Source: Phoronis australis (lineage: Eukaryota > Animalia > Phoronida). Taken from it: 64,000 bases of DNA. Positions 1,205-58,100 of this stretch are shown here, piece after piece (the stretch's first letter is position 1; each line of letters opens with the position of its first letter). Where the stretch lies: assembly GCA_002633005.1 (NCBI GenBank), contig NMRA01000055.1:800282-864281 (forward strand). Reading direction: 5' to 3'. Position numbers and translations under genes: made by a program. The notes beneath the pieces are model-generated. The model did not search any database. It saw only the letters and a list, made by a program, of their open reading frames with translations, and had not been told where the DNA came from.

Positions 1205-1748
1205 GATTCCAAAGTACATTCATCGTGCATTGTCAATAGACAACTACAAGAACCGCTAGCACCAATAGCCCACACTGTCAAGATGGCTGAAAAATAATTG
1301 CTGAAGTCATCATTTTTTCTAGCTTTTAACCGATTCATGAAACACGCGTGACTTGCAGCATGTAAGATGTAGGGAAACAACATTTACTTAAGTTCCCATT
1401 GTATGTCAACATGTCAATCTCAATACGGCATGGAAATTATTTGCAAACATTTAATTCCCGTAAGCATGCCATCTGTTGGCCACATCACGTGGCCTAAGTG
1501 CTTATTGTTTGTACAAAAGTGATCAGACATTGAAAAATTGAAAAACGACCATTTTGGCAATTACCTTATGCAAAGTAAGCTCGGAATTACTGATAGGTGC
1601 AAAATTTATAGGCGTATAACAGGATTCAACAGGTAAGTATGCAGGCATTCAAGAGATTTGGCGTGAAATTGTCAAATGACTTTGACATGCCGTTATTGTG
1701 AACAAAATTTGCTTAACCCAATAGATGTGTCCTGTTTTTATATTTCAG

Positions 1749-28100: not shown

Positions 28101-28967
28101 CTGTAGTCATGGTGATTACGATGCAATGAATGGGTTGTACTACTTGTGTTTAAGGGGTAATAAAAATGATGAGGAAGGCTCATATGGGATTGGGTGGTAC
28201 TGAGATGAAACATTTACGTCACCAACCCGTAATGAATGCACACAGCTCATAGGACATTGACAAACCAGTACAAAGGCAATACGATCACTCCAGCTGTCGG
28301 GTAATGGAGGGACCATATGTTCCCGATAAGGAATTGCTCAACAGTTTTTCTTTATCATTGCTAAAACAAAATCTACTCACGCTAAATGTGTCAGGATATA
28401 ATGCCTGTGAATAATTCTAGAATAGCTAGATTGAACACAAATACTCGAACAAAACTATAATTACTAAATTGCTTTTATTGTCATAAATATGTATGCAAAT
28501 TGTGTATTGTCATAAAAAGACACAGACAAAGGCTATAGCAGATGATTTTTTGCATTGTAATGGATTTAAGTTAAACCTGAATTTTGTCCCGGGGGGGGCA
28601 ACCATAATTTTATATCATTTTTGAAGAGAAAATGTTGAGCAAGGCCTGAAAGTCAGCATGTCAACGTCACTTATCTTGTGGTGTCCACAATAGCCGTTCC
28701 TAATCTACAGTGTCATTCGGTTACTTAAAACAACGTCAATCTACACTTGGCATTTTGAAAATTAAGGATACCTGACCAAGAATTCAACAAGACATTTTCC
28801 ACTTTGGCAGCTTCAAATTTCTGTTGAAGGGTTTCTTTAGGAATGTCGTATGGCCAGGCCAATTCCACGGCATCAAACCCGGCGTTCTTTGCAGCAGCAA
28901 ATCTATCTTCAAGTTGAGGTACCTCTAAGAACATCTTAGTAAGATTAGCTGCAAATTTGAGACTCAT
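19144..28967 (-). CDS. HYI: Hydroxypyruvate isomerase (xylose isomerase-like TIM barrel), 8 coding exons
   Basis: Exons 28967-28772, 26917-26806, 25720-25630, 24056-23981, 22199-22150, 21715-21646, 20497-20363, 19196-19144, all GT-AG and in frame. The protein reads [13 protein letters not shown]...MHIMAG...LIEPIN...[14 protein letters not shown]...[14 protein letters not shown]...GEINY...IGLEYGP...EGLKWL, the Hyi family signature. Confidence 0.95.
21535..21635. mobile_element. Palindromic ~100-bp MITE-like repeat (family A)
   Basis: Arms ATAGTCGGATATAAC...TTTTGAGAACCAG and CTGGTTCTCAAAA...GTTATATCCGGCT surround a conserved TTCTCCACTGAATAA core. Other copies are at 18612-18720, 40586-40687, 41176-41252 and 52774-52881. 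Confidence 0.8.
25868..26022. repeat. Inverted-repeat element (family B); arm-like copies also near 1465, 56146, 56390 and 60226
   Basis: CACGCCACCTGTTGGT...CATGTGACCTG pairs with CAGGTCATATGATGTGACCAACAGATGACGTG. Confidence 0.55.
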
Positions 28968-29026
28968 CTCGCAAGATGTTGACAACTTATTCACGGACAT
29001 ACGAACCAAAGCACCGGCCATATGAG

Positions 29027-29107
29027 AGGTCAAAGGTCATTAGTACAGAAATCACGCAAGATATCGCGGTTTTTGTTGTCAAATGACGTCATTGTTGTAA
29101 AATGGCG
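29027..29107. promoter_or_regulatory. Motif cluster in the divergent promoter between HYI and the membrane protein gene: DR1, CRE, YY1-like
   Basis: AGGTCAaAGGTCA at 29027-29039, palindromic aaTGACGTCAtt at 29082-29093 and AAAATGGCG at 29099-29107, all 60-140 bp upstream of the HYI ATG. Confidence 0.55.
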
Positions 29108-29668: not shown

Positions 29669-30350
29669 NGAACAAAAAAGTGCATTAGTAAAATCAACAA
29701 GTTTTTAAGTGGTCTCAAAAAAACAGTCGGTAAATGCATTAATTTTAGTCTCAGTTCTTCCACGCGTGTTTCTCCCGAGAGGTTAGTACCTAACGTGCAG
29801 ACGAGCGTTCCAAATTGGAACGCTAAGTCCCGCGTGGCAGCGCTGCACGCGAAACAAGATGGCGGACGACCTTTGGAGACTGACGACGAGAGGTAATCGG
29901 ACTATACTATAGGAGCTTCATCCGCCGGACACTTTACCCCTATTATGTCTTACTCTGATTAAAACGTCAAAGTCACGTTGTTATAGGTACTTTTTCCGCA
30001 TAGAGAAATAACTGTAGGAGGCCTTTGTTGTCTTTCATTTCTTTCAACTCGAACAAATACTCCCATAATCAAACTTTTTCTCCGAGCAGTCTTTCATTAA
30101 GTTGTCCAATTCGACAACTGGCCATTTTTACACTGTGCACATTGCTATTTTTATCACGCCGGCCAGGTGTTTTTCATACACATATATCAAGCAGAGACTT
30201 CCAACGTAAATCTTAATCTCTGTACAAAAATATGTATGATCCAAACATTGAGATTTCTCGTGTAATGTTTAACCATATTGCTTGTTTAGTAACTTAAGAA
30301 AATCATTTGTTTCATTTTAGATATAAGAAAGAATGATCACGTAATTCAAT

Positions 30351-33300
30351 ATGGCGAAAGATACTAACAGTGGGCTGCGGGAGTCTTATCCACTCCTCCC
30401 GACCACATCCGGTGAACGCCATGATAAACATGGCTATGTCAACAGAGGTTTTGACTCAAAGATTAAGATCAGTCGGAACAAAGATTTCTGGGAAGACCGT
30501 GAATGGGATGATGACAAGACACTTTTTTCGTACGATAAGAGGAGAGGTACATCCATGATCGCTTACGATTGTTTCCTCGTTCTTCTCGACTACTTACATC
30601 TGTTCTCTCTGCTTCAGTCCCTGGGGCTGCGCTGGCCCTGGCCTCAGGGATGGATTCAGTACTCATCTTGGGTGTTCTTGTTCAACATTGATGTCTGGGA
30701 CTTCTCCAAAGTGTATAGCAATGGCACATACAAGAGTGTGAAAGATTATACCGTCCCCTCGGCTGAAATGCCTTATCACTATTGGCAACTGCTGGTTGGT
30801 TGGCTGGTAGTGCTAGTAATTGCTGCTCTTGTGTTCGCTATCCTTTACATTGTTCTGAACGTACACAAGCACCCATACATGATGGTTCACATTGCCCACC
30901 TGCAGAGGGCGTATGTGGTCATAGTCGAAATCCTCGCACTCCCTCTTGGACTGACGATAGCGCGCATATTCAATTGTAAACCCGACGCATCCGTAACGTC
31001 CGACAAGCAACTGGTTGACGTTAGCAATGGTGTGGAATGTTTCAGTGATATGCACTGGGCTTACATTGCACCTTCATCTGTGGTCGCCTTTCTACTTTTC
31101 CTCGCCTTACCAGTGTGGCTGATATTTAACATCAAACAAGAAATCCTGGCCGCCTCCTCGGACCAGCATGAAGGATTTTTACAACTGAAGGAGACAGAAT
31201 ACATACAGGGCTTGGACATGGTGTTTGTTGTCAAGGGTTACCCGTTGTTCTCCTCATTTAGACTATGGGGTGTCTACTACAGACCTACCATACTCCTCTT
31301 GAAGTTCGCAATCCTTGTGTTTTACGCGACGCTATTCCAACACACATTCGCGCAGTCGCTGATCATTAACTTGATCCTTTTTGTAACGCTTGTAGCGCTC
31401 ATTATTGTACGTCCATTCCGCGTGAAACCGTTCAACTTCATGCTGATTGTCAATTATCTATGTCTCATGGCCAATTGCCTTCTTGGAACGATGCTGACAT
31501 CCTTCGACAGTACCACTGTGCAGTCACCTTGGTTGACTCCAACTTATATGACCTACATTCTGCTCTTGATTAATGGCTTCTGGCTGCTATGCGTCATGGG
31601 TAAGTGATTGTGATCATGATAATTATGTAGAACGTAATATAAGCATCTTTGTATTCCGTCACGTAATGTTTTTGGTATAGTTTTATCATTCTAATTGTCT
31701 ATAGAGTGTGAATTTGGATTGCAATTGTTGATTTTGTTCGCTGTTCTTTAATGTCGGAAAATCATCTGACAAGGTTCAATTTGTTATGTTCCAGAAATGA
31801 ACGAATCGCAGGTGATACTTTATTAGTTTCATTCACTGCATTTTGTTCATGGTTCGTTGAGATCATGAAGAAATTTTGTAATCGCTGATTTGTCTGTATG
31901 TTAAAGAGGTGATGCTTTTGCTTGGTTGCTAAATCTCTGGCAACATTTCCTTATTTCTGAATTTGTACAAGACAATACAATATCCTTGGCATTTTTGTTA
32001 AAATCGGTTAAGAAACAATTTTGCATAATATGGTGTATTATAGCATTTGTATGGTTCTTGCATTGGTGGAGATGGGTTTGTTCAATAATACGGCTAAAGT
32101 GCAAATTAAACCAAATTTAGTGATTGCTTGATTTTCTTTCAGTGTTCCTTGTGTATATTCTCCTGCGTCATCTAAACCTTCTCAAACGTTGGATAAGGGA
32201 GCCTCTGTGGCCGTCCATGACTTCCAGGGGACTAAACAAACTGAGCCCAGAAACGAGAAAGTTCATGCGAGGAATACTCCGAGCTCGCCATCTTCTGGGT
32301 AATTAGGAAACTACTCTTGTCACGACCATTACTGACAATAATGTTCATTTGTTCAGAAATCCTCTTGGTGTTCTCCACAGCCTGTTTTAATTTATCTTGT
32401 GAAGGAATTTGAATTTCCCCCTCTCTAGCTTGACTTATGTGCATCAAGTTCGAAAACTGTATACAACGTGTTCGAACTTCTGTGAGACTAACTATTTCTT
32501 AAGCAGATAACAGGAAATTTTGGATTTTTGACGCCTGTTCAATGCATATTTTCTAATACTTATCTTACAAACTTTCCACAGTATGGACATGAATTTTTTA
32601 TTAAATTTTAGTTTCGTGTTGTGGAGAAAACTGCGTATTGTGTGTTGACAATTCTAAAACTTGAACGATCCTGAACAAAACATAAAAATACGACAATATG
32701 TTATTTTACCTTGTATTATTTAAAGTTAATCTGAGACAGATTGAGCAATTTGCCATTTTGCTCTGCAAGAGTTATGAGTAATCAGTCTCTTCATGTCCGC
32801 AATTTGTAAGTCTTAATTATCACGTTCTACAGAGCGATGCCTTGCGATGCCGCCGATATTTGCGCCAGTCCATGAGCTGTCGCGTCAGATCCAGATCATC
32901 AACGCTTACTGCCGAGAGGCGGAGCTACTCAAAGATCCCATTCACCCCACGCTGTGGGACCTGCTGGATGACATGATCGAGTCCTACTCTAAGATCGCTC
33001 CCAAGTCTTTATTTTCTGGTAAGGACTCCAGTGTCATGTCCAGTTATTTTGCTCATCTTTGATCAACTCCCAACACTGTAGGATGTTTGAGGTGATGTGA
33101 AATAAATACTAATTACTCTTGTGTTGCTCTCTAGTCCTTGTAATCTGACAATAGCTGTAGTAGACTATAACTCCTAAATTTCTGTTATTCATTAATACAC
33201 TGGATTGGTGTAATAAGGATACTCGACACAAAAATGCTCTGTTTTCAACGACTTTGAAAGTACGGTAAAATCTCACCAGTTTCGGACAAAAATAATTTCA

Positions 33301-36300: not shown

Positions 36301-39300
36301 GTCCAAACTTTCAGCACCCAGAGACCCTACTGGACATGGGTCTGGAGTCTGACTCGGACGACGAGTTCTTGGACAATTTGGACTCTTGGGCACAGGAGCA
36401 CCCCCGCTCCAGGGGAGTGAGTGTAAGTATGCAGAGGTGTAGCTGGGACACACAGGGGCCTCTGGAAGGAATATCAATGTCAAGAGCAAGGGATTCTCTC
36501 TGAGATGGGAAAATCACCATTTAGAGTTCTTGGACTGTAGAGTCTTGAACAGAGGAGTACCTTATAGGCCGGTTGTAGTGCAAAATACGTCTGGAGGGTT
36601 TCATAATGTGGTAGGCACAAGTATTGTTGGTTTCTGTGACTGTATGGTTGACCACCTCTTTGACACAGTAATGTCTGTACTACGTCGTACATTAAGTGCA
36701 GGAATTACAGTAAGATTTTTACAATTTGGGACAGTCTCTAAAATTAGGGTCACAAAAATTTCAACAAAAATTGAATTTTCTTGATTCTGTAAAGTGAGTC
36801 ATGGCCAATTTGGTGTTCATGGTATTTCTTAAATTTCGATCACTTCTGCATCAACTGAGCCTGAAAAGAGATTTCGCTGTCAGTTCATTAAATCAACAAA
36901 AATAGCTGCCAAGGCAACCTTTTCGTGCGTCCTATTGATATGTAATATCAAGATGAATGATGGTTTGTCGTTGATGGCAATTCTTGAATTTGGGATTACG
37001 AATATTGCGTAGTTCTAAAATTTGGTACAAGCTGTGACCTTGAGCAAAATAATTAATTTTTCACTTTCCCAAGCTGAAGAATTTTTACTTTAAGTTTTAA
37101 GAGCCATAATAGATGCAGGCAAATGCTCTCTTTTCACAGTGTCATTAGGTACTCGTGACTCTTAAAAGACATTATAATGTAGTCTTGTGGACATTGTCTC
37201 ATTGCTGAGATTAAACTGGATCTCTTTTAAGCATTAAAATTAGAGTGATTTTGTTGTGGAAAATTTAAGTCTGCCGAGTGTGCTAGTCAATTTGTCTTAA
37301 CGTCTGCGGAAAAATGAAATCGGTGAAGCCCAAAAAGTGTTCACCAGTCTTGAATTGGACTTTTCCTGTTCATCATAAACAACTCTCAGATTACATGAAT
37401 ATGAACCCATGGTACAGATGTTGTATTTCAGTTTGTAGGGAAATTCCAATTATTAATATTTGCATGCAGGTTAATCTTTGTTTTCTTTTTTGACAGAGGT
37501 TGAGTGATGACTTGTCAAGATTGTTGGGAGACGACATTTCACTGAACCTGTCGGAAATGATGGCTGGTATACCGAGTCTTCATGACTCATCGTCGGGAAG
37601 TTCAAGGTCAGTAAAGTAGTAGGGGAGGTATTGGTGCAAGATACAGGGTAACACACAGATATGTCTCGAATTGTTTTCCAAAATGTGGTGGAAACGGGAT
37701 GGGTGGAAGCAAAATTCATTGAGAATCATAGAAAATCTGCCTCTCAATGTAAGTCTGTCTTCAATCAATCCATCTTACATTTTATTTATAGGAAATGATG
37801 AGCGTATTTTAGGATGAAGAATGCACTCTAATAAAAGACAAATATCCATTCTTCATTATAGCGGCGGCGTAATGAAATTTCCTTTGTAGCTAGATGGCGA
37901 TTGTGTAATTAGTCGACAGTGCTCTGCATCCCCGTATGGATTTAACACTGTGGGATATTTTCATTTTCTTATAAATTCTTTGTGACTGTCGTGCTGTCAA
38001 ACTGCCAATGTTATGTGGTGAGATATGCAACAGATTCAGGCAAAGACGTCCAACGTCTCGGAATGTCCGTGAATGAAAGAAATTGTGTTTTACCCCTGTC
38101 AAGTCAGACCATCTTTCATACCTGAATTGGAAATTGGGTCAAACCTAAATTGGGTCAAACCTATGATGCTCTTGTGCTCTCACAATCTTAAGATAATTGT
38201 ATGTAGAAGGTCTCCTATAACAGTGATATGAAAGTCTTAGACTCGAACTTTTGTAGCCTTTCCTCATGATGGTTAATTTGGTTATCATCAAAAATGACTG
38301 GTAATATCTTATTAGGTCGGAAAAAATTCGAATTACAAAATGGCTAAGCCACCTTTCTAACTTAACTGTTATTTCTCGTTAATTCTTTGTCACAAGGAAA
38401 GACTACTCTACGATGAATTTGTCTTCTGCCCAATCATCATGACAGGGAACTCCGAGTTACTGTGTCTGAATACTTTTGGCTTGTACTGTATCTGATTTTG
38501 TTGATGCATTCTATCGTTTGCTGAATCCCAACGCGATACGTTGTACTGTGAGATTCTTGTAATCCTCCTTCCACACCAACAACTGCCTCGGTTGTTTTCA
38601 TTGTATCAAAGACAATAGACTCAGCTGTATAGTGGGTCTTCCTGTTGCCCTATTGTGGGCAATATTTCTTCCTGTCCTATTATGGCTCTTCAATTATTTT
38701 TGAAAACTTAAATTTTGAACGCTTAAAAGTATTCAGTGGTCATCCATGTCTATAGAGCTTTCACTCAGCCCCACCTTAAAAATTGTGAAAATTTTTTGTA
38801 GTAAACTAATGTCTCCCTGTTTCTACAGACCTGCCAGCAGCGCCTCTCGACTGGTGCGACCATTAACCTCTAACTCTCATAGAAGCAGTCAACGGTCGGC
38901 CAACTCCCTCAGTATGGATGGACGCATGTCCAGCACCCCGGTAGCTGACCATAAAGCAGGACTGAGACCAGCTTCATCTAAGTCATCACCCAACAGTTCC
39001 CATGGTGCAGATGAACAGCCTCCTCGACCTCGAAGTGTTCAGAGGGTACTCGACGAATCACTTGGAAGACCCAGCAGTAGTCAAGGAAGACCCGTGTCCC
39101 CTCAGGCACAGGAAAAGCGCGATAGTGGACAAAGAAGGCCTGATAGTGCACAGCAAAGGCCTGAGAGTGCTCGGCAAAGACCTGGAAGTGCACAAGAGAG
39201 GCCTGGTAGTGCACAGTCTAAACCCAGAAGTGCGCACTCTAGGCCTGACAGTGCACAACAAAGGGCTGATGATGCCCAGCAACAACCAGAGAGTGTGCAA

Positions 39301-39462
39301 GATAGGCCTGCGAGTGGACAGTCTAGACCTAGAAGTGCACAGTCCAGGCCTGGCAGTGCACAACTAAGACCTGAGAGTGCGCACTCCAGGGCTGGCAGTT
39401 CTAATGTCAAGTCTGGTCAACAGTTGATTCTAGGTACTGCAGAAGATGAATCTGTTGTGTAA
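30351..39462 (+). CDS. Uncharacterised multipass membrane protein (~915 aa, about 8-9 TM segments, helical/acidic cytoplasmic region, RPxSA-repeat tail)
   Basis: Frame-compatible exons 30351-31599, 32143-32298, 32833-33018, 34234-34380, 35619-35723, 36256-36416 (or 36422), 37497-37606, 38829-39462. An in-frame TAA lies just upstream of ATG 30351, the exon acceptor is at 30320, and AATAAA is at 40539-40544. Confidence 0.85.
35355..35461. repeat. Dispersed repeat end (family E); copies at about 3130-3235 and 49050-49145
   Basis: Shared CTTTCAGAAAAT...CCGACTT...CAGACTTGT..ATAAGGTCC...CCTT.A. Confidence 0.55.
36690..37080. repeat. Old dispersed repeat (family C); copies at about 62570-62950, 20880-21120 (reverse) and 57930-58060
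   Basis: Shared blocks such as AAATTGAATT.TC.TGATTCTG, ATAGCTGCCAA, CAATTCTTGAATTTG, AATATTGC.TA.TTCTAAAA and GACCTTGAGCAA. Boundaries are approximate. Confidence 0.65.
39135..39400 (+). repeat. Coding 21-bp tandem repeat (heptapeptide RPxSAxx, about 12-13 units)
   Basis: AGGCCTGA/GxAGTGCACAx units translate to RPDSAQQ RPESARQ RPGSAQE RPGSAQS KPRSAHS RPDSAQQ and so on. Confidence 0.9.
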
Positions 39463-41324: not shown

Positions 41325-43168
41325 TGCAAGTACACTTCTCTAACGTTACATATCTTGATTGACAACATTCACTAGGGTTACCATGGTTACAGAATATTGG
41401 TGTTGAGCGCACACAAACCAAAACTGCAACCATTAATCACAGGAAAGATAAATTGTTCGAATGTCTACCATATCTGCATTTCTGATTGTTTCTGCCAGAA
41501 CACTTCTGCGCCAAAGCATCATTTGTAAAACACAATGCCAAACCACTCGGTGTCTAAACCTTATTAAATTATACTGGCGTACGTATATCTCTGTATGCAC
41601 CACATGTTGTTACAAGCGCTCAATAGCACAACCAAGTGCTCCGTCTCTAAGATAGTGAATCGATACCCTAAAAACCTCCCGCTCTCCCTAACAGGTTTAC
41701 GCTATTCAGTAATATTGCACACAAATTACCAAAAATCATGGTCTACAAATTCGGACAAGCCAGGCACAAAAACTTTCAATTGTTGCACAGAAAGGTGAAC
41801 ACTGACAAGAGCGCACTTCACTAGAAATGAGGTCTACGATTCTACATTTCATTCATCAATTTGACAAAACAACTCAAGAAAGCAAATACACACTGTGTGG
41901 TTTGAATGCAATTGCACCGAAACTGTAATCGGTGTACCAAGTTAGGATAGGTGAACTGCTCGCCAGAAGAGCCCAGTCAAATGCAAGATGACACGGATAC
42001 TTAGGAACTGTTGCAAAAATGCAAACATTTAGGTCTTCTAAATCTTTTAAGCCAAGAATTTAAGACTCTGTATGTAGTCAGATACAACAGATGTAAATCA
42101 GATTCCGCACCAAAAAGGAAGTGAAACGACCTCTGTTGACCAGAGTAAGAACCTGCTTGAAAACACGTCTGCTCAGATGTCTAAATGTTTTCATGACATA
42201 CCTCTGGATGTCACTGCGTGTCTCTAGATGTCATTGTAAGGTGTATTTTCAATTTCTTTCAGTACTGACGTACATCATGTGAAGCCATTGCAATAAAAAC
42301 GTGGGATAATATGCCAATTAGATGTAAAAACGTCACCCCCCATCCGTGAATTTATAACATCAGTATAAGTCTTAAAGAAATAAAAACTATGCGCAGAAGA
42401 AAAATTTTGCAAAACTCTTTAACACAACAGAGCAGTTGCAATGCGACAGGAATGCCTAAAAGCTTGCAAAAATTGAACACAAAAATATTTTTCAAGTTTC
42501 AAATCAGCAGGAATGTTCAAGACTCAAACTCACGATGCGCGAAAGAGCAAAAAACGAATGTGATACCTCGAGAATTTTTTAACGTCTCCAAGAGTCAACT
42601 GAACACAGATCTACGAAGCAAATAAAGCACACTTAGACAGTCATTTTGTACAATACGTACACACAAAACAATCTACCGCAAGACCACGGTTAGAGCTAAG
42701 ACATAAAATTAGTAAATGCACCAATTCCCGATCTAGTGAAAATACCACACGATTTAAACTACCGTACGTGTCACGCTTGCACTTTCCACTTCGAATTTTC
42801 GCCAGTTGGCAGCCATTTTCACTAAATTGCTATATACACCAATAAATTTGTATATTTCCTCTTTGTTAACGACATCAACATACTGGGTGTTTAGAAAACA
42901 AGCTGCTGACTGTAATGTATCTTTTCTTTCCCTGCCCATGACACTAGTCTGCTTATTTTGAAACACCCAGCGTCTTCCAGCCTATATCAGCAGCCTTTCA
43001 ACTATTGAGTCATCAAAGATGACAAGTTATACTCACATATACATACAAACACATACTTTGATTACCGAGATTTTTCACAGCTGCATGATGGGTAAATTAC
43101 ACATGTGAGGTCAAAGTTCATGAGATTATTTAACCTAGACCATTTGGCCAGTGCGCAGGTGGCGCCAT

Positions 43169-46100
43169 CTAGCAGCTACAGTTGTTTTCCTGTGGGTTGG
43201 TATTCTCGGTCAGTCTCGTGCCTTTGTGTTGGTTGTTGACGATCGTCGGGTCCGAGTCAAGACTTTCCGACATTTTATCGCATATGATGTCGACGAGTCG
43301 CTCAAACACAGCTTTGACGTTAATGTTTTCCTTCGCTGATGTCTCAAAGAATTCCAAACCTAAAATTGTTGACATGAAGAAAGTGTGACAGGATTCAAGA
43401 CTGTATAGAGTACAAAAGATAAGCAAGGCACTGTCATAGCAAACTTGTTCTCAGAATGTCTGAATCAGTCTTATTAGTTTTGAAACAGGCTAGGAATGGA
43501 CGGGGTCAGGTAACTTTGACCAAAGCATACCTCCAGTGCAACATGGAATGTTTCACATATTGTACACCTCTAGTTGGTTCCCACTCAGTAACTATGTACA
43601 GTAAAATTTCACCAGTATACGACACAATATGGCTGACAGATGACTTTTTATGTTCACATTTTTTCGTATAAAATAACGTATAGCACAATTAATGGTTTAC
43701 CATGTTCAACTTTTGTATATCTACCTTCCCACAAAATTTTAAAAACTTTGGAGAATTAACGATTCTAGAAGACCACGAAAAAAAGAAACGGGCAATTTTA
43801 GCTGTTATTTTTTCCAAAAGTGTTGATTTCACTACTATAAGACCACGCTGAGAATTGTCTTGGTGTGACCGCTTCCTTAGTAGCATGACCACTAAAAAGC
43901 TTCAAAAACCTTTCTCTTACCTGCATTTCACTGTCCTGTACTGACCATTGCTAGTGTATCTTATTTCACAACAGATCACAAAGAGAAATATTTCGTGACT
44001 GATCATTTAGAGTAATTCACACACATTTGAAATACTTCGATTGCAATGTTTAATTACAGAAAATGAGGCCAGAATAAAAATGTTAAAATTTCTGAATTGT
44101 GTAAGATATGATGAATGAAAATCTGCTTGCAACAATTCTGATTATGTCACAAATAATAAACCAAAACCTGAACTCAACATCTCACTAGATCATCATTGAA
44201 ATGAAAGAGCAACGGACTGTCTGCCTTTAAAATTTTGCAACCTAGAGGAAAGCCGAGTCTCGGTTGCCTAGGGAGGTTAGGTTCCATTGAGTGAACAGCG
44301 TGAGTCGTGCATTGAGGTGCAGTCTGGGTAATTTTATGGATTTACCATTATCCTATAGTCAACCCACATACATATTATGTGAATGGAATAGGTAATAATC
44401 AGGATTCCAAGCGATAACGCATAATTGAAGCCGGATAAGAAAAAGGATACTTTAAGAAAATTGAAGCATACCAGCATCCCCATAAATACTAGGAATGTTG
44501 GTTAAATCAACACAATGTTGAAACAGTTGCCAATTTAGGATACATGTCAACACGTAAATATTAGCATGCACATTCAAAATTTCCGTGAAGTTGCAGTTTT
44601 TTGATTATGAATTGTCATGCCTACACAATGACAAGTGACCAGGCGAAGGATACAACCATGTAAAACACACATCCAGGTTAGATATACTAAGTTTGCTAGG
44701 AAACTACAGACAAAATGCAACTACTTAATAATCTGCTCTCTGGTTATAAGGTTCCATGCCCAAAGCCAACTGTATCATGTATAAGTCGATTTGGTAGTGG
44801 TGAATTTCGCTAACTATGTTACCACTTTAGAACAGTTAAGCGGGTTCATGGTAATGCCGTTCAACTTAATTCAATTAATTGCTTCAAACCTGTCAACGAA
44901 CTTCTATTCATTTACAAATTTTTGGCCCGATTCATTTCTCAGCAGAGTGCGTTAACCAAGACCACTACAGCAATGACTACACTACACACATGTGTAACAG
45001 GACATAAAGAAACCTTAACTGCAGTGTACATAATGGCCGTATAAACATTCAGTTCACTGTCAAAGATTAGTATGAAATACAGTGTGGAGAGCTTTGCAAA
45101 TTTAAACACGTTTATTACTGCTTTAGAATCGGAGACCTCCACAAGAAGATCAAATCATGAAATCTGCATAGTCATGCGTGTGCAGAACGTTTGAAAGTGA
45201 ATTATCTCCCCTCAATCCTGCAGTCAGCCATTAATCCATCCGGAACACCTGGAGTATTTTCGTAGCCTCAAATTTCGCCTCTAGGGTGAACATTGTCTGC
45301 GAGTGTGCGAACTTCAGTCATATGTTAAGTCAAACGAGGGAATGACTGGCCATATGACTATAATTCGGAGAGACGCCGAAATCACTCAATTCCAACTGAA
45401 AGTTTTTGACGCATAGGAGTCGGTTCTGGATGCCATTAATCTAATGCTGGCAGTGGCAAAAGCAGAAAAAGTAAAATATTCAGAGTTACTTAAAGTCACT
45501 TGAAAAAAGATTCAAGGTGACAGTCTTTTACACAGACTTTGTTTAAAGTAGCAAGCCACGCACGGAAACAGTCAAATGCATGAGTTATAGTAGAAAGGCA
45601 ATTAATTCTACATGCAGATTAAAAACCTGTTGGCATTGCATTAGTTGATCAAGAGGAAAGAAATTCAAAGAAAAATTTTGCAATCTCAAATTGCTTACGG
45701 CAATTGCCTATATCCGTCACAAAGGATCCATTTTCTTAAAGTATTACTTATAGACATATAAAAACTAAATGTTTTTGAAACCCCTGAGGGTCACAGAAGC
45801 TTATGTCCACAAAATGATACTCAGAGATGTTCCTAACCGTGTGACTGCATTTTTTCTAAAAATCTTAATTTTTCACCGAGACCAACATAATTTCCCTAAG
45901 CAAAAATAGTTTTTGCATGAAACAAATTCTGTTCCATTATTCTATCAGCTACAAAAGGGATTTTAAGGCCTTATAGCTCAAGAACTCCACTGTAAAAATG
46001 TAAGACATCAAAACAGAAGTCTCACTTTTTGACAGATGAGCTCTCAGACTAAAAGACCTCAAAAAAAAATTTCAGACTTCCTTTCGGAGCCTATAGAATC

Positions 46101-49100
46101 AAAAAAAAAACAATTGCAATTTTCAAACCAAAGAATTCATATTTGTGGAAAATATGAAGATCTACAAAAATCATGATTTTTTAGATAAAAACACAATAAA
46201 GTGATTACAAACATCAAGGCATTGCTTTAGAACACAGAATCAGATTCCGTTATCATCAAGGACATGAAAAATGCAGTATAATGAGTCTGCTATTGATACG
46301 TAAAAGATTATTTAAGAAATTCAATCCTGAATAATGAAAGAGACCTATTAAGGCGTTCAGTCATAGAAGTGAAATTTCAAGTAGAGACGACTAATCCATT
46401 ATTCTAATTGCTCAGAGACTAAACTGAACAATTTTTAATAACGATATCAATTTTGCTGTAAGAAATTTATATAGATTACTGCATGTTAAAGTTATAACCA
46501 CCAGGTAAGCGCCGTCAATAAAGCCGACAACCACGGACAAAGCAAGCACTTCAGACACAAAGTGAGAGGACAGATATCACCCGCAGCACCATCACCATGA
46601 CTATGACCTCCACGGCCGTGACTCGCCTAGTTATTACCTAGCTGGTCAGCCAGATGCTTGCCCCGTTCCTTCGACACGACCCTCTCGTCCTCCAAATCGC
46701 ATTTGTTACCCACTAGCACCACCTGGGCATTGTCCCATGAGTACGTCCTAATCTGTGTGGACCTGGAAAAGACACGTCATCGACCGTCTACAGGGGACCT
46801 GTGTGTCATACCCTACCTAGACGATCCGCGAGTTGCTTCGCGCGCTCCGTCGAAATGACTCGCTCGTCCTCAAGGTCACACTTGTTGCCGACAAGCACGC
46901 AGCGGGCGTTGTCCCACGAGTACATCTTGATCTGCGTGCACCTGCAAAAGACACGTGACACCGGCCGTCTACAGGGGGTACGACGCTGCGTCCTGCCACC
47001 TAGTGTTGCCGGTGGATATCATGCCAAGGTGTTCTCGCACCCACCAGGGATCAACCTCATCAAAGAACAAATGACAATGTGACTCAACGAATTTTCTGTT
47101 TTGAATAGTCACTAACATTTAGCAACTGTACTTTCAAATCTGGCAGTATTCGAATTTTGAGAAAAATGTCTCCAAAGGTGAGCAGTTGGAGACAAAAGTA
47201 TGGGTTTAGGTTATCTATGAGGAACTGCCACAGGTTAGGTAGACTCCCACCTGGGCATGACTGACCACACGGCAGAGAGAAAGACGAGAGAGAGAAGAAA
47301 GCTCAGCGAAGGACAACAGATAACTAAAGAGCAGTGGCGCCAACATAAGTCACTCCCGAGGCCAGACCTACCTAACTCCTCGGCAAGCTTGCGGCCCGCC
47401 TTGGTCGAGACTACGCGCTTGTCTTCCATGTCGCACTTATTTCCAATGAGCGCAACGGTGGTGTTGGCCCAGGCATGGGTATTAATATTGGTCACCCTGG
47501 AGCAGACAACAGAGGGAGCAACTAAAACACGGTGGTGCGTGCGTAAGTGCACAACAAAGGAAAAGGAGGTAATTCAGTCTATGCTCACTAGGTGGTGCCA
47601 TCTTGCACAAGGATGAACAGTTCGGAATGGGAGGAACCCAAAAGCTGTCTACGTATGCTAGAGGCATCTGAGGGACTAAACATGCAATGGTGGAGAGAAG
47701 GGCAAACAAAAAGTTGTGTATCAAGGTGAGCCATTTTAGCTTGTGTTTACAATAGCAGGAGATGAGCTCAAATGAATGGAGTGGTCAGACCTTATTAGCA
47801 CAGGTAAAGAGTTGTATTACCAAGACTAAGGATAGGGGTCTCTGCAGGTACATATTTGGCCGTGTTTAAATCAGGGAGGCTAGAAATCACCAACAATTAA
47901 ATTTATGCGAAATCAGTGAGGGACAATAAATTATTTTTCCACATAAATTTTGGTGTACAAAATCACGCAGCTGTGCAAAATAAGTGGAGAATTACCGTAT
48001 TTCCACACAAGGTGGCAGCAGGGATCATGGTTCCACACAACTACCAGCAATCTTATACGTAGCATTTTACAAAATAATACACCATAATTATGTACTTGTC
48101 AAATGAATATAAACGTTTCAGTTTTAGACCTCCAAATGAGTTACGAGTTTCTGACTTTTCTTCCTCGTGAAGACTGAAATCAATCTCAGCGCGGAAAGAA
48201 CATCAACATAGTAATTCTCCACTTTTTGCCAAATTTGTCATTTTCCCCGTTTTCAAAGGCCAACTACTTTATTGCAATTAATGGAAAATTTACCAAAAGT
48301 TTGTTTTGTGACATCTACACAGTACAAACCATGCTAAGTAAATGACTAAAACTTTCCTAATCATTTAATTCTGTGGACAAATTTGACAAAACAGAATTTT
48401 ACCTGTTGGCCATTTCGTGTGTTTAACAAGTGAAAAATTACCGCAAATGAGGATATTTAAATCAGGCTCCATTTAGAACAAAATCTGGTCTGTGTACCTA
48501 GCACTACCTTCAACATTTCATTTTTGCCAATAATTTCATGAAACAAATTTTAAAGAAATAGTTTCAACTTATTCCGAAAACGATCCTCAATCACCAGGAT
48601 GTCAAACTGTTTTCAAAATAAATCAGAATTTAGTTTAGGAATTTTAAAGCCTAATGTCCAAATTTTGATGGTATATCACAAATTTAAAACTTTTGGATAT
48701 AACTGCACCGTTCTATAAAATGCTGTGAGCACTTGCTTTCAAAATGTTGAACTTTTGCATGATAGGGTATCAAAAATAGGACTTTTTAAGATTTTTATGA
48801 AAATAATTAAAAGCTACATAAAAGGAAAATGAAACCATAATTCAAATCTATTACAGAATTTTTGAGATTTCATTGTGAAAATAATAATTCAAAAAACTAT
48901 AACAGCCTTTTTGAGATTTCAATGAGAACATTAATTTTGTATAACAAGAAATACCATTGTTTTGCAAAAAATTGACAAAAATACATGGTTACGTGACCCA
49001 ACTAGTGGCAGACTGGTGCATAGTCAATATCAAATTCTACAGCCTTAGTTTGTGCTTTCAGAAAATTTATACTTTTTCCGACTTACAATCAATAGTTCTG

Positions 49101-52100
49101 GCTAAATATAGTCTACTCGATAAGGTCCTGCAATAGCCTTGATACGGATTAAGTTTCATGGTACAATTGGTCCACTTCATGCAAACAGCCATTCAGATAA
49201 AACGTATTTTTCTTACTTCAATTAAATCCCTTGGCCGTTCGGATCCGGATCCGACTTATGAGTTTTACTGTATATCAGTTAAGGGCTGAGATATTGTATG
49301 AGTACTTCCTGTCATACAATACTCTCCCATCTGCTACCAGCAGCAGAGAATGAACTACGGCCAGTTGTAAATACTACGCTGCTGTACTAAACCTGCATCA
49401 ACCGTCATGAATGGAGTTATTAAATAACAACTACAGCAATAGAATGCATGTCCATGAACCTGACATAGATAGTAATAGGTGCGGTAGGCGTAAGGTCAGC
49501 TTTAGTGCTTAAATATGATTCATAAATCTAACTATATGGGTAAATGTACGCACAAAAATTTGATTTTTTTCACTTTCTTGCGTTCCTAAAATGTACAAAT
49601 TTTGACTACCATGTTTAATTCTGATAACGGTAGTTCTGCACGTAATTAAAACACATTGCAGCAGACAAGCCAAAAGAATAATTCGCAAAATTTCACAAAA
49701 ATTAAGATTTAATTTTAGTCAAGTGTTGGCATGGTTTGTACTATGTTGATGATTTGAAAAAACACATGATAAGTTGATCATTTTTAGCAAAGTAATCAGC
49801 CTTCATGACAAAATGACATTTTTAACAATTCTGGTGACCACCTTTCTTCTAAATCAATAAAATTTATTGTATGGTGCTCAAATGTTGAGTCACCAAAGTC
49901 CCATTATTCAGAATCCTATCATGACACTAAACATTTACTAAGCTTTTGGTCAAGATCACATTTTGTTGTTTTCCCTGCTTCATCCAAATTCTGCACTAGG
50001 ATATGCCATAGTGAATGATACAAAAGTACAATAACCTGTCCAGATCAGTGGAATCGCATTATTACTGCGAAAAGACAGTGCAGCCACGGAATAAATTTAA
50101 CAATCCCATGCCGCAAGCAGATTTCCCCAACTCCAAGTGCAATGTTTGTCCTGTGGAAATAGTGACGAGGGGCCTGTTTCAGGAAAAGTGACTTCACAAG
50201 ACTAACGTCAGAAAGTTTGTCTTACTCTCCAGTTTCCACGTAACTATTTCAGAAAAATAATCAAATCTCACAAATGAGAACAAGTCCAAAGTCTAAAAAG
50301 ATCCACATAGTTACTGGGATAATCTCTAGAAATTATTTCTACAGTGTGATGCGCTCGTATTTTCTTGGCTAAACCTTTTTTCAGCAGTTGCGAAATGGAA
50401 GCCTAAGTTTTAAGCCACTTTTATGATACAAGACCTCAGGGTTTTCCTTTCATGACATCCTAGATCTGACATGCATTTATTTGTAGAGATTTTACTAGAG
50501 ATGGGGTCAGAAATGATGCAATACTTCAAAATTACATTATTAGCCCAAATGGGTATGGGACACCCTGTCTTAGCATAGACTGAATTACGGCAGGCTACGA
50601 ACTGAAAACAATTCAACTCAAACTTGACTTGTAAATGAAGACACCTGTGTGATTCTACAATAAAAAATAAAAACTGATATTAGGGAGTGTAAACAACAGC
50701 AAAAACAACAACAACAACAACAACATGAAACTTGAATTTTCGCGACCAGCAGTTGTATTTCTACGCCAGCCATGGAAACTTGTATATGTTACTTGCTTTG
50801 TTGGCTTGTTGCATACCACAAATGTATAACTTGGGATATGACAAACATTCAAAATGAGAATAACCCAAAAAAAAACAATAAAAATCAGGAATATAAATTA
50901 TTTTGTGGACGATGGACTCTAGAATTGGGGTACTGAAATTTGCAGGAAATGTACAACTTATATGTGGAAGAAAAGCATTTCTCTTTGGAGAAGCTTTTCC
51001 TAAATTTTAGACCATTTATCGAAAAATTATGGGCAAACCCATTAATTTTTAGGATAATACTTCTCTCTGTCCAGAACAATTTAGACTAGTTGCAAATACA
51101 ACTACCATAGGTATATATATACCTATGTAATTATCAGAGTGGTAAAAACAAATGCTGTTGATCATTTTGTCTTTTAAAATGCATTGCAGATTGACTCAAA
51201 TAACACCAATTCAATAAAATGGCTCGCATTTAACGCACCAGAAATTTTGTTCAAGTCCAAGTTGGTTTGTCAAACATCGCCTTTCTGGTGCCAGCAGAAT
51301 TATGAAGGAAAATTAAAATTAAAATTTTTTAAAAAACTAAGCCTTGGCTGTACTTTTGTGACAATGAGACAATGTGAAAAAACAAAACGTACTGACCACC
51401 TTGCACTAGTCCATGGGACGACCAAAAAAATTGAGCAGTTTGCTGTTATTGAGACAGTAAGGTAACAGTAATCTGTGCTTCCATAGTGCCGTTAGCATTA
51501 CAAAAGTTGACACGGATCAGCTGATATGGAACGAGATGATAAAGCGCCAGTATGTGTGTAGACAGGACTGACACGGAGCAAATTGACACCATGGTGGCAA
51601 CTTTTGTCACCCGTTTGTGAGGTAGAGCAACTTGTGCTCAATCATTTTGTTCCGTGTCAACTGTATGTCTAAACGCAAAACTGGGGCAAGGCGGAAGGGA
51701 TCATCTCTATTGCGCTTGCGCAAAAAATCACATGTATACAGGTGATCATTTTCGTGCAATTTTTATGACTTGCCAGTCAGCTGTTCAGTGCTTTGTCTTC
51801 TAACTTTACCCCGACCACCATTTACTTTGTTAGGAAAAAGTCAGAATATTACACACAGTTAACAGTCAAGACTGGGTTCAGTTCAAATGCTTGGTTATGT
51901 ACAGCAGGCCTACTGACGAAAGCGTTAATCAGCTGATCAAATAATCGTTGAAGCAAAAACTCAATGTCACAAATTGCGTACACTTGTGGGAATTACCATA
52001 ACAACGACAACAATAACAATAATAAAAATGAACTGCAACTGCAGCGATTTGCATCTTTGCGCACGAGCCCTCCACATTCCTGCCTACAACTTCCGCCTTG

Positions 52101-55100
52101 CCACCGTTTCTTAGTTGCGGGTGTGTAAACGGCCACTTGACACCAATCATCTTGCGTCAGGTCAGTTGCGCCTTGTGTCAAAAGCTAATGTCCATTTTTT
52201 GCATCAAGGGTAATAAGAATTTGAAAACTGTCAAACGGTAATATTGGCAATAATTTTTGTGCAAGAATTACTGGATGTTATGTCTGACTTGGTGAGCGAC
52301 TGAGCGACGGCGTCTAAAACCTTGCTCACAAGTGATTGAGGGGCTTTTAAAAAAAGTCTGATACCTTGGCTGAAATTGATGCTTTTCTTAACGTAGTAAG
52401 GTGCAACTTTCAAAATCATTCAGGTACAGGCCAATACCAAGTATATCTTTTACATGAACAGTGAATCCTATAATGCCAACTTTTGGAAGCATCAATACAA
52501 AAAAAAACATAACTGCAATGAAATTCACATCTAGTTTTGACACAAAATATGAACTCCGTTGTAAAAATATTGTCAATTCTTTTACATTAACACACTGTAC
52601 AAGAGAAAATGATTTTACAACGATCAGCGTCACTTCCTAGGATATCAAGCCACGATGTTAAACAGATACTTGTCTCACAAGTTTGGAGAATCCTTTGAAT
52701 ACACAAGCAAGCAAAATGAACTTACCACAAAGAACAAATGAGTGCAACACTACTCAATGAATAAACAATGGCAATAGTCAGTTACAGGGTCTCTCTTCTC
52801 CCCCCTGCATTTTGAGAACCAGTTTGATGCCTGTTACTCAGTGGAGAAAACTGGTTCTCAAAATGCACTGTAAGTGACTATAAAGCAATTAAGCAAATGA
52901 TAAAGCTTGCTAGACACTGAACAAAATTAATTTGTGTTTCTATGGCAACAACAAGAAGAAAAAGCGAAATGAATCTAAAGTATGTGTTCTAAGATGGCAA
53001 GTGAACGCCATACACAAAAAACAAAGATTCTCGAAAATTGTACAATCGAGCTATAAAACAAGAATGGTCTTGCATTGTATGTCTGAGACGCGATGGATTC
53101 GAATTAAAACACTATGTCAAAGCAAAAACATTGATTCCAAACCCACACTCATCATTGCGAAAATGATCAATTTAAGAACTTGTTAGTCAAAAATTTGGAT
53201 ACGATTTTGGTAATAGACACAGAAGTTGACATTTGATATCTCCCTGAATTACCATTAGAGGAAATACTTGAATGATTTAGGGAAATCTTCATCATATATG
53301 GGCAAAAGGTGGGCATTACATATGAGCCAGCATGTTTTCAAATGAACTGTTCACTTACAGTCAACAACAGTGTATTGATTTGCAATGAATGTATGTGTAC
53401 AGCTATGTAACTGTTATTGGCCTACTTGTCTGCAACAGAGCACCTTCCCTACAAGGACCCCGGGGAACTTAGCCTACAGATTCCCGGAAGCACCGATAGC
53501 TCAACCATGCCCTGCGACGTTGTTTACCATATTCCGGGAAAGCTCTATCACGTTTCAAGATTAGAGAGAGAGTGAATATTTTTTTCCGTGGTTTCATTAA
53601 AATAAAACTGCTGCCCAGATACCTCCCACATCACTGATTGATCATCTTCAACAAGGAATGAGGAGAGGAGAGTTGAACAGCCAAACATAACTTCAAAAAC
53701 ATCTCAACTTCGACTGGAATATGAATCGGCTGAATAATTTGTAGCAAAAAGCACTTGATCTCTTTGTAGTTTTACGCCATTGTGAATAATTCACCTTCAT
53801 CACTGACAGGGAAATATTTAAATCATCTATGTCTTCAAGTTCTGTGACAAGACGTAATATTTATTCCCTTTTCATTGCGAGTAGACTTGTCTAAGCATTA
53901 TTTGCGATTGCCTTACATGACGTGATCGATAAATTATAAGATTCTATTGATTTTCAACAAGCGTAAAGTGGCCACTGAGACAGTAACTGAGCGAGGGAAT
54001 ACCATCCCACGATTACACTTAGGGTACAATGCATCAAGCATCGTTGTACATAATACACATGCGCAAATGCCTTATAAATCAATAAACGTTCATTGGCTTG
54101 TTTCATAATCCTTTGAAAAATTATTCCGCACACTAATTGCCACCAACGCATCTGCAGGGAAGGCAACCAGAAACGTTAGGGACGCCGGATTCAATAGTTT
54201 TACAGGGAAATTAAAACATTAAGTCAGCGTGAAAATGAAACAAGAGCAGCACAGACGTCAGACAGGCGTCCACGTGTGCATCGGAAATGGCAAAGATATG
54301 AGGGATGCTCACTTTTTCAAACTTGCTCATCCACTGCAGTGAACATGACTATTGTGCGCAGCACTAGTCATGAGAAAATTGACCAATTCAATCTCGTTAG
54401 ATGTTGAAATCGCTGCAAAGAAAACTAAAATTACCACTAGGGGGCACTGTAGCAGTCGGATCAATCCAATAATTGACACCAGTCATGTTTACCTTAATAG
54501 AATCTCATGTCATGACGATTCTTGAGACAATGGTGTAACACAATTGCCACTAGGCGGAGCAGAAGTAGTAGACACTGTCCAAAATTTAATGTCAGCCAAG
54601 TTTCTGTTAAACGAAACACCTGCATCCAAGTTTACAGTTCTTAAAACTAATAGGCAAAAAGATGGACGGCAGAAACAAACACCAAAATATAAAAATTGAT
54701 AATAGGGGGCACAGCAGTATTCGGCCCAGTCTGAAAAATTATGGATAATATTGTCTTCTCACTAGAGACACATATGCCATTTATTTAGATCCAATACATT
54801 GAACTGATTGACTTGCTAGATGTAGAGGCAAACGGAAAATTTTAAAACTGCCACGCTAGTAATCAGATCTGTTCCAAAGTTTCTTGTCACCCGTCATCAA
54901 CACCATGGGAAAACATCTGCCAATTTTCATGAGGATCTTGCGAGGGGTTAAGGATATACAGCAAAAATGAAGGCAGTATGCTCCAAATGTGTACATGTGG
55001 GTACATATACGAATACTCACATTACATGGCACTCTTTACCCAAGAGAAAAACGACTGGCATTTTGCTCACGCAAGATTACTCCATGGGAGAAAAAGTCTG

Positions 55101-58100
55101 ACCAGTAAAATATTCTCCGGAGGGACCAATCACAATAGGTGACGTCTCAATACCAAAATGGATCAAAATGGATTATTTGAATCTAGTTTAAAGTCCACAT
55201 GACAAGCCCAGCGAATCAGCTTCTAAGAGGGTCGAGCCGTGTGTGTTACAGTAAAAAGTTGAGCATCGATAAACACGACAAGAGATCTATTTGGACGAAA
55301 TCAGTGGGCTCAAACACTCAAAATAATGTTAGATAGGAATACTGGCTTAATGCTAACGTGCTCCCCAAAAGTACAGACAAGCAGTCCAATTTGACATAAA
55401 AGGTAACCACGAACACTAATACCCTAATAGTTCCCAAAACAATGTCAAAACTGGTCAAGCGATTGGAAGCAGAATTTTCAAGTGTATAACCTCATAGTGA
55501 AGACCGCACACACAGGAATTGAGTTTCGTAAGCTTATGCGCCCGATGCAACTCAATGAAAAACTCGAAACACTTGAGGAGTTCAGCTGTCGGAATCATTG
55601 AAATCAATGTGTTTGTCTTGATCACTTTCGCACATGAATGACAAATGTTCCTACGTACCTCACATTAAAACGACATTCTACTATCATCTCCACACTGCTA
55701 ACTGACAGCTAATCAAATTTAAACTTATCACGTATTTATCAAGTTGTCAACATTTGAGACGAGCATTTTGCTGGACAACGCCTTGAACTAGTGTCTAGGC
55801 TTGCATTTTTAAGAGACCGAAAACGCCTACCAGTCTTGGACAGCTTGGAACGATTCTTCATTGGTGACGTCGTACATCAGTATGAAGCCCATGGCTCCTC
55901 TGTAGTAAGCGGTGGTGATGGTGCGGTACCTCTCCTGGCCAGCCGTGTCCTACAATACATTCATTAATAATGGCCATTAAAAATCTTATCGTTTTACAAG
56001 TATACTAGTAATTGTCAATGCATATATGTGTGTGTGTGTGTGCATGCGCGCGCGTGTGTGCGTGCGTGCGTCAAATAATACACCCCTTCATTTGTATTTG
56101 ACATCAGCGTTAATACATTATTCGTTCAAAAAGAATTACAAGTCTTCTTACACGCCATGTCGGTCACATCCCGTGATCTAAAGTTTAAGTCTGAAGATAT
56201 CTCTGCCCCCACCTGGGACTTTCTACAATCCATGTAGATGCTCTAGTCCACTGAGCTACTTGGACCACCAGTCGATTGTAAAAGATTTATAAGAGACATC
56301 TCATCCCAGCTAGAGAGTTTGCATACATGTATATAATTGTGCTGTTAAATCAGTGCATTCAAATGGTATAAGCAAGAATTATAAGTCCTCTAACACGCCC
56401 TCTGTTGGTCAAATTACATGACCTAGATCTAAGTTGTACTCCCTTCAGCTAAACCAAGTCATAATTTTTCCACAGACACCACTATGTCATTGTTACTGCT
56501 CACACCCAGAGTTACACCGCTAAAATCCAAGTTCTGGGTTTTAATCGCTAAAGGTCTGTCCCATTAAATTTGTTTCATATATTACACAAGGCTGTGACGT
56601 TCAAAACAACATTACCGATTCAGGGTGGGTTGTAGCCGTAAGGTCAAATCAGCTTAGTTGGTTCTGGCGTGTACCCCAACTCATTTAAAAACTCGCGCTC
56701 AACGACTAAAAAATTCGCCAGCCTGCTTCTATGTCTCGGTGTATTTGTACAAAGGTGTGTAATCACATAAGAGTAAGGTTTGAAACATCATGATTTCCCA
56801 GCTATTCTCCCTAGTTTCAGGATATCTTAAAAAGTTAGCAACTAAGAAAGAACCACACCGCCAACTCAGATTTTCAAGACACAGACCATAACCAACTATG
56901 ATTTTTTGGCCAAACCATACTAGAGTTAAAGCTTTTTATACTGTTGGACACCTTGAGTTATAAGCTTTAACACTGATTTGAAAGTCATGACTGCTTTTGC
57001 ACAAACAGTACACATTATAGTAACCAATAATCAATTGTTAACAGTAATCAGTTGCTGAAGGACACAGTTAGATGGTCAACATTAATAATCAACGGGGGGG
57101 GGGNGGGGGGGGGGGGGGCATGTGCCCCCAATAATTTTCACCTTAATACAGGTCTGGCTTTCGTAAGTTTTGAGACTTCTGCCCTGGAAGAACACACTAA
57201 TGGCATAATGAGAGGTTCTCAGGACAACATCCACGGATTATGACAAGTCAGGCCTAATAGACTGGAATTAGATTTCACATCTTGCTAAGGAATAGACCCT
57301 TATTTTTGTAGTTTGAGAAAAATGGTTCTCCAAATTCTAATTACTACAGCTCATGACACACTGTATCAGGGTTCTGGGATTGTAACAACAACTGTTTGCA
57401 CAAATGGCTGAACATGAAAGCACATCCTACACATGTGTACATTTACTCAGCTTTGTGAGCAGTGAGCTGGTTGCATCAGAACCACGTTTTCTCAGACAAG
57501 TATTGACACTATTGATGTTGACTGGGGTATTTTTCAGTCTGTCAAGGTCTATTGAAAGGTCTTCCTTTTGACTGTTCAGGGACCCGCTGTCTTGTATGCC
57601 TGTCTTGTATGCTGCCCACGATAATCAAAACAGACAAGCTCCAGACATCAGGGGTCATTGTTTCTTCACAGCCTGAATTCCCTTAAGTGAAAATTGATGT
57701 CAAAACAAAATCACTTTATGCCCATAAATTGACCAGTGTAACATAAACACAGACCTCTTCCCCAGCCCAGCTTGTCATTTCAAGCTCTGAGTTTGAAGTA
57801 AACAGCCTGCCTACAAAAGTGATAACAAAGCCGCCAGCAAAAGTGACTCTTGTAATCTGGACTTACTGCCTTTTTGATCCTAGCAAAAGNGGGTGCCGGA
57901 TAGGAATATCCTGACTGTGAGAGCAAGATGTAGGATTAGCATTCTAAAATTTGGGACATTGAAAATTTTATTATTTTACTCAAGGTCGACCTTGAACCAA
58001 AAATTTTACAAATAGACAATATTGGCCGTCCCAAATTCAAGAATTACGATCAATTTTTACCGTGAAATAACACTTTAACTGGTACTCTTTGCTGCGCCAT

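Follow-up and report, generated by a model that had tools for sequence, protein, structure and literature searches.

Rab3, a switch protein in the release of neurotransmitters and hormones, is in invertebrates commonly regarded as a single protein, after fly and worm. The Rab3 gene on the minus strand of the DNA analysed here, a 64-kb stretch that we refer to as the window, carries three tandem copies of its third coding exon and raises the question whether one invertebrate gene supplies several Rab3 proteins by splicing, as a sequence-only reading had proposed. The reading that we favour, with a probability of roughly 0.8, is that exactly one of the three duplicated exons is spliced into each Rab3 mRNA, which would give three predicted 219-residue proteins likely to differ in the effectors they bind.

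The exons and the elements around them are collected in Table 1. The ATG of exon 1 directly follows a CAG, so that an upstream untranslated exon is likely. Membership in Rab3 is indicated by exon 1, which shares 97% identity with Rab-3 of molluscs and brachiopods, and the nearest relatives of the encoded protein are those of molluscs, brachiopods and nemerteans, as would be expected of a lophotrochozoan, the most likely source. In a PDB search with exon A the best nine matches were Rab3 chains (E 1e-11 to 4e-10), followed by Rab8 (3e-6); the idea that exon A is simply Rab27- or Rab8-like was ruled out, the Rab3 chains scoring far higher. Exon A alone was uninformative as a query for homologues, returning three fungal Rab8-like matches among six candidates.

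Table 1. Coordinates of the Rab3 exons and of the elements discussed in the text
Feature	Position in window	Strand	Remarks
Coding exon 1	63262-63038	-	75 aa; P-loop and switch I
Coding exon 2 (e2)	55949-55831	-	119 nt; switch II; donor 55831 common to A, B and C; 149 junction reads
Alternative exon 3A	47496-47372	-	H-type (THAW); residues 116-156; 19 upstream and 19 downstream junction reads
Alternative exon 3B	46941-46817	-	M-type (MYSW); 19 + 11 junction reads, 0 in run X6
Alternative exon 3C	46762-46638	-	Standard T-type (TYSW); major form; 111 + 111 junction reads
Last coding exon (e4)	43359-43169	-	Common acceptor, entered at 43359 by 141 junction reads; encodes G5, alpha5, the hypervariable tail and the CSC prenylation motif, with the stop
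13-nt element upstream of B acceptor	46965..46977	-	Identical to one upstream of C; candidate selector, from sequence
End of exon B with its own donor	46811..46827	-	Predicted pairing with either 13-nt element; post hoc; local fold z = -1.0
B-C intron	46763..46816	-	54 nt; acceptor AG aside, all adenosines ≤40 nt from donor
13-nt element within B-C intron	46784..46796	-	Best predicted partner of B donor region in 20-kb pre-mRNA

The description of A, B and C as tandem exons of equal length, phase and boundaries was verified throughout: each is 125 nt long, is preceded by CAG and followed by GT, is free of stops in the frame entered in phase 2 and left in phase 1, and carries GNKCD at an identical position. 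The introns measure 8334 (e2-A), 430 (A-B), 54 (B-C) and 3278 nt (C-e4), and in pairwise comparison the copies share 70-90 of 125 nucleotides (56-72%) and 19-31 of 41 amino acids. Translation of all eight inclusion patterns confirmed that only A, B or C alone leads to a 219-residue Rab3 with a CSC end; the other patterns yield 119, 172 or 197 residues. Every isoform keeps the P-loop, DTAGQ, GNKCD, ETSAK and the terminal CSC. A fourth copy was found neither by tblastn in the 64-kb window nor by an HMM applied to the e2-e4 interval, where 52 AG..GT/GC candidates and all three frames were scored.

RNA junctions across the exon cluster

Three raw-read runs from one study (X6-X8), chosen by species label and carrying no tissue label, were read to 18-19% and aligned to positions 42500-56200, an interval with exon 1 outside it; a contig set from 2015 (X5) was used in addition. 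The runs derive from 2026 samples distinct from the source of the DNA. All six single-exon joints occur at the exact bases, from 55831 to 47496, 46941 and 46762 and from 47372, 46817 and 46638 to 43359, on the expected strand and with canonical ends. The count of junctions leaving 55831 and entering 43359 had been set beforehand as the test of the predicted splicing, and it gave 38 reads for A, 30 for B and 222 for C (13, 10 and 77% of 290). By run (X6/X7/X8), the upstream joints have 6/2/11 (e2>A), 0/6/13 (e2>B) and 19/12/80 reads (e2>C), and the downstream joints 6/3/10 (A>e4), 0/2/9 (B>e4) and 17/29/65 (C>e4). Junctions of A and C are thus present in all three runs and those of B in two; the X5 contigs contained no Rab3 exon joint.

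Joints of the types A>B, A>C, B>C and e2>e4 are missing from the 15 of 19 joints listed for this steady-state RNA, against 290 single-inclusion reads, and together with the six predicted junctions this bears out the proposed production of three isoforms by splicing. The four joints outside these 15 are weaker, joints with fewer than three reads are never listed, and rare double inclusion or skipping is bounded at about four reads or fewer per run if the listing ranks by support. Exon B accounts for 0 of 48 junction reads in X6 and for 30 of 242 in the other runs (p 0.04 and 0.21 when each junction set is taken by itself, 0.007 when the two are pooled, mates not being independent), which hints at regulation.

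Within exon 2, three linked differences at 55922, 55926 and 55927, present in between roughly a third and three quarters of the RNA reads, produce an RFRS-type switch II motif. Most likely these are cross-mapped reads of another Rab gene, and RNA editing at 55922-55927 was set aside in favour of this explanation; a second exon 2 was not found by tblastn in the 64-kb window. The e2-A intron also contains, at 52804-52867, a roughly 60-nt high-copy element that RNA reads cover very deeply in both orientations, with bin means of 190-350 on each strand and with loose ends, a transcribed repeat.

Distribution, age and origin of the copies

Third exons were named by residues 121-124 as T (TYSW, the standard), M (MYSW, B-like) or H (THAW, A-like). 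Spiralian Rab-3 models in RefSeq and GenBank contain the same 41-residue swap between identical flanks (Haliotis rufescens XP_046338157/8/9, Lingula XP_013381632/3, Tubulanus XP_074644075/6), and in the abalone X1 is T-type, X2 M-type and X3 H-type, with identity outside the exon. The X-isoforms of RefSeq are automatic gene models. Compared with them, exon A of the window has diverged further, its closest match being Lingula with 26 of 41 residues, and here all three forms are documented by raw junction reads. The H-type is represented by isoforms in abalones, a limpet, periwinkle, apple snail, scallops, oysters, a freshwater mussel, a chiton, Lingula and Tubulanus, with more diverged H-like forms in heterobranch snails and bdelloid rotifers; M-type alternatives were seen in Haliotis rufescens X2, Lineus X3 and the genomic contigs L003 and L026. 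Ten of 12 same-cluster protein pairs differ inside exon 3 alone and one more at a single residue outside it, the pairs including Haliotis rufescens X1/X2/X3, Lingula, Tubulanus, two oysters, two pulmonate snails and Adineta ricciae; the remaining pair, P0064/P0243, differs upstream too and was left out of the count. The alternative exon is strongly diverged in Physella (P0014), Biomphalaria (P0262) and Elysia (P0009), and one residue shorter in the first two.

At the level of gene structure, the Nucella and Batillaria models place H before T, as in the window. Of 425 confirmed metagenome loci 80 were kept; the 40 best of these were inspected, an HMM scan covering 23, and five of the 40 contain tandem copies with AG/GT ends. 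One of them, L003, has M followed by T and no H between e2 and e4; the rotifer-like L033 (4000-4377), L035, L036 and L037 have two 125-nt copies, M-type and then H-like, separated by 110-133 nt. In rotifers the standard exon 3 has Met at the position of Thr in others, so that Met alone is no marker of B orthology, and the rotifer H-like exons evolve fast, with pN/pS of 0.33-1.41 among themselves. Six loci that span e2 to e4 contain a single exon 3 copy with introns on both sides (L004, L011, L012, L015, L031 and L038), which means that the cluster is absent in some animals; the first four represent one animal group, in which the alternatives are absent. No alternative type was present in small samples of 9 starfish, 14 arthropod-cluster and 12 full-length coral proteins. 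Arthropod-like and coral-like loci (L007, L016-L018, L020-L022, L027-L030) are without an intron at the 3' edge of exon 3, and the cassette in its present form is therefore impossible there. A search with the Lingula H region, which scored 42 candidates, is a poor census of H-type exons. Judged from these models and loci, alternative exon 3 copies are widespread in Spiralia and not species-specific.

The three copies are old and constrained. Pairwise pS is 0.73-0.83, near saturation, with pN of 0.15-0.33 and pN/pS of 0.20-0.40; the ratio is 0.14-0.27 between B and the M exons of L003 and L026, and 0.06 between C and the T exon of L003. For exon A, constraint is judged from protein conservation. 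In a substitution-only neutral simulation (d=1.0, 20,000 copies) an open frame with AG/GT ends was kept in 0.6% and 22 of 41 residues in none. Absence or decay of the copies in relatives, with dN/dS near 1, is not what was observed: many relatives have intact copies, and pN/pS among the window copies is 0.2-0.4.

From this distribution we infer an ancient exon duplication in spiralian animals as the origin of the cluster. In trees built on the 41 columns, one of which is in part set by the M label itself, one branch separates the H-type exons from the rest (88/85) and another the M-type exons (81/79), neither branch being starred. H is probably one old lineage, and exon A very likely represents the H-type exon of molluscs, Lingula and nemerteans, and probably that of rotifers. 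For exon B we lean towards orthology with the M-type exon of abalone and Lineus. A competing account, which we consider the less probable course of events though one to be reckoned with, is that only A is ancient, B being a lineage-specific duplicate of C with an independent Met121, so that the three-way state arose more than once. Local duplication is disfavoured by the trees, but neither a clade of B and C (p-AU 0.17) nor one of all three (0.105) is rejected, and exon B is equally close to T-type and M-type peptides. Moreover, on their acceptor sides B and C share an intronic stretch of roughly 36 nt with an identical 13-mer. The alignment score of the stretch, 53, compares with at most 24 in other acceptor-like windows of 600; gene conversion could be an alternative source of this stretch. 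Exons B and C are nevertheless synonymously saturated (pS 0.73), the best tree places 9.7 log-likelihood units between B and C, the order in L003 is M before T as in the window, and the abalone has H, M and T forms, all of which speak against a lineage-specific origin of B.

Tandem mutually exclusive exons are already known as a class, and the Rab3 isoforms are implicit in RefSeq. The sequence-only reading knew of no description for Rab3. In print this held, as no account of exon 3 alternatives was found in the titles and abstract starts of the top matches; it did not hold for databases, where RefSeq isoforms X1/X2/X3 exist (all three in abalone), and the arrangement is shared across spiralians. 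Genome-wide exon tables in subscription journals or bioRxiv supplements, which lie outside the scope of this search, could list the Rab3 cluster. New are the demonstration from RNA of all three forms within a single species and the wide occurrence of the alternatives in Spiralia: Rab3, a core regulator of vesicle release, comes in two or three splice forms in animals as far apart as molluscs, a brachiopod, nemerteans and rotifers, and as a consequence probes, antibodies and gene models in the neurobiology of snail, oyster and worm may mix isoforms.

Predicted consequences of the swap for the protein

Exon 3 comprises the end of alpha3, the alpha3-beta5 loop, beta5 with G4, the beta5-alpha4 loop and alpha4. 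According to the available text of the respective studies, W124-D125-N126 make up CDR2, a rabphilin contact that was mutated in fly for this reason (PMC4552854), and the beta5-alpha4 loop is CDR5, which adjoins the nucleotide pocket (PMC5902227). Relative to the standard sequence exon A introduces K120N, Y122H, S123A, D125A, A127T and Q128T, and exon B T121M, Q128R and V129C. Residues 120-129 are identical in Rab3A, 3B, 3C and fly Rab3, and exon A alters six of these ten. Switch I, switch II, CDR1, CDR3 and the tail are encoded by shared exons. The three predicted proteins would differ at residues 116-156 alone, keeping the switch regions, the prenylated tail and GNKCD while the CDR2 and CDR5 loops are rewritten. 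On this basis the isoforms may cycle and reach membranes alike and recruit rabphilin/RIM-type effectors differently, a proposal to which we give even chances.

The main evidence against effector binding as the point of difference comes from the fly, where, in the available text, Rab3 with WDN124-126AAA showed normal localisation and function at the NMJ depended on none of the CDR residues (PMC4552854). The chief rival, altered nucleotide cycling, accepts the splicing but holds that the isoforms differ in nucleotide handling, in GEF/GAP/GDI interaction or in stability, with A weaker or differently cycling. It is consistent with the intact NMJ function of the fly CDR2 alanine mutant (PMC4552854, as far as its text is available) and with the position of G4 and the beta5-alpha4 loop, both held by exon 3, beside the guanine pocket (PMC5902227, likewise). 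H-type exons, furthermore, retain W124 and in most cases N126, with the greatest variation beyond G4, and the pulmonate versions change G4 itself to GSKSD, GSKCD or GHKCD. In Physella, Biomphalaria and Elysia the G4 asparagine is replaced (GSK or GHK), which may weaken nucleotide binding there. GNKCD is, however, intact in A, B and C, and the H signature is centred in CDR2, with S125 and N126 at least 90% conserved among 21 peptides, a set in which positions 122-123 are fixed by the selection rule. We regard altered cycling as possible but doubtful, and a difference in effectors as the better account.

Two Rab GTPases provide human precedents for an internal tandem exon duplication. The sequence-only reading had cited RAB6A/RAB6A', which is indeed catalogued; RAB37 is a second case that it had missed. 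In the accessible portion of the catalogue (PMC8373072) both differ from Rab3 in having two copies. The RAB6A exon, dated to Vertebrata, encodes 35 aa over DTAGQ and switch II and not the region from CDR2 through G4 to CDR5; that of RAB37, a secretory-type Rab, encodes 37 aa over the P-loop and switch I and is dated to Bilateria, with a Drosophila orthologue. For the RAB37 swap the authors propose a surface patch altering partners, and the human tandem-exon table contains a C-terminal event in RAB28 and, in the portion available, no row for RAB3A or RAB3C (PMC8373072). Rab proteins are not mentioned in the accessible part of PMC9741552. Vertebrates likewise have several Rab3 proteins per animal (Rab3A-D), but by gene duplication, and the CDR2 segment that exon A rewrites is the standard one in Rab3A, 3B, 3C and fish Rab3D. 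The spliced Rab3 forms are natural variants of a single effector-contact region, long kept while the rest of the protein is identical among them, and they offer a clean test of whether Rab CDRs set effector specificity, an idea to which the fly alanine mutants gave no support.

Possible routes to exclusive splicing

The reading frame itself would act as a safeguard, as multi-exon and zero-exon products are truncated and frameshift together with decay would remove most leaks. In A+C, B+C and A+B+C the stop lies 75-125 nt upstream of the last junction, in A+B at the last junction, and in full skipping 16 nt into the last exon. Nonsense-mediated decay follows a 50-55 nt rule for the distance from stop to last junction. 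Splicing might accordingly be non-exclusive, with multi-exon products made and then lost to decay, and steady-state RNA would hide A+C, B+C and A+B+C. We consider this improbable: A+B and full skipping are no predicted decay targets and would escape, yet neither is among the 15 listed joints, which indicates exclusion at splicing, and the B-C intron measures 54 nt. An assembly artefact or dead duplicated exons, against which the sequence-only reading had argued from synonymous differences, is refuted by the junction reads, A, B and C being spliced to both neighbours in RNA of separate samples, and is further opposed by the excess of synonymous change between the 56-72% identical copies, by a second DNA sample that contains 0.92 of the region's sampled words and by equivalent exons across phyla.

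For B and C, exclusion at splicing could be steric. The 54-nt intron would place the branch point too near the donor, and we find it fairly probable that the two exons are unjoinable for this reason. A candidate model is the steric exclusion of OGDH 4a/4b, where the distance from donor to branch point is below about 50 nt according to the available text (PMC7969005); the B-C intron would fit this geometry, its adenosines other than that of the acceptor AG all being 40 nt or less from the donor. This threshold comes from vertebrate work and may not hold for the present organism, in which the branch point is represented by candidate adenosines. Some invertebrates splice very short introns. With 430 nt between A and B, steric distance is no explanation for the exclusion of A.

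A second route might involve the duplicated 13-nt element, which does not recur elsewhere in the 64-kb window within two mismatches. Its pairing over the B donor would set the choice between B and C. Among predicted partners of the B donor region in the 20-kb pre-mRNA the copy before C ranks first and the copy before B third; both pairing energies are reached by 0.24% of 5,000 shuffles, in a test that was post hoc, and the native codons rank fifth and seventh of 72. The local fold, a hairpin over the B donor, is not unusually stable, and the pairing has no counterpart in L003. The idea that the 13-mer by itself pairs with a docking site farther away found no support, as the best candidate (-16.1 kcal/mol) was equalled or surpassed in 13 of 20 shuffles. 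Repeated elements complementary to one site are described for the docking-site/selector systems of Dscam1 and ATE1 in the text available (PMC6071210); in Rab3 the proposed docking site differs in being, by prediction, exon B's own donor. Overall, we think it unlikely that the element sets the B/C choice.

A broader scenario, which we put forward tentatively, combines these elements. The cassette of H, M and T might date from early spiralian or lophotrochozoan time and provide cell-type-specific isoforms with differing effector preferences, as a splicing counterpart of vertebrate Rab3A-D that rewrites CDR2, a loop held constant in all the vertebrate paralogues, with the B/C choice made by two selector copies competing over the B donor.

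Other open reading frames in the window lie outside Rab3. The ORF at 28725-29036 (-) presumably resembles the N-terminus of hydroxypyruvate isomerase and gave no Pfam match, as did a proline-rich 350-aa ORF at 1725-2777 (+). A 420-aa multi-pass membrane ORF at 30345-31607 (+) matches Pfam PF06011 weakly (E 5e-4, under the cut-off); downstream of it, an ORF at 38719-39462 (+) contains repeated RPxSAQ units, and the two possibly form one gene.
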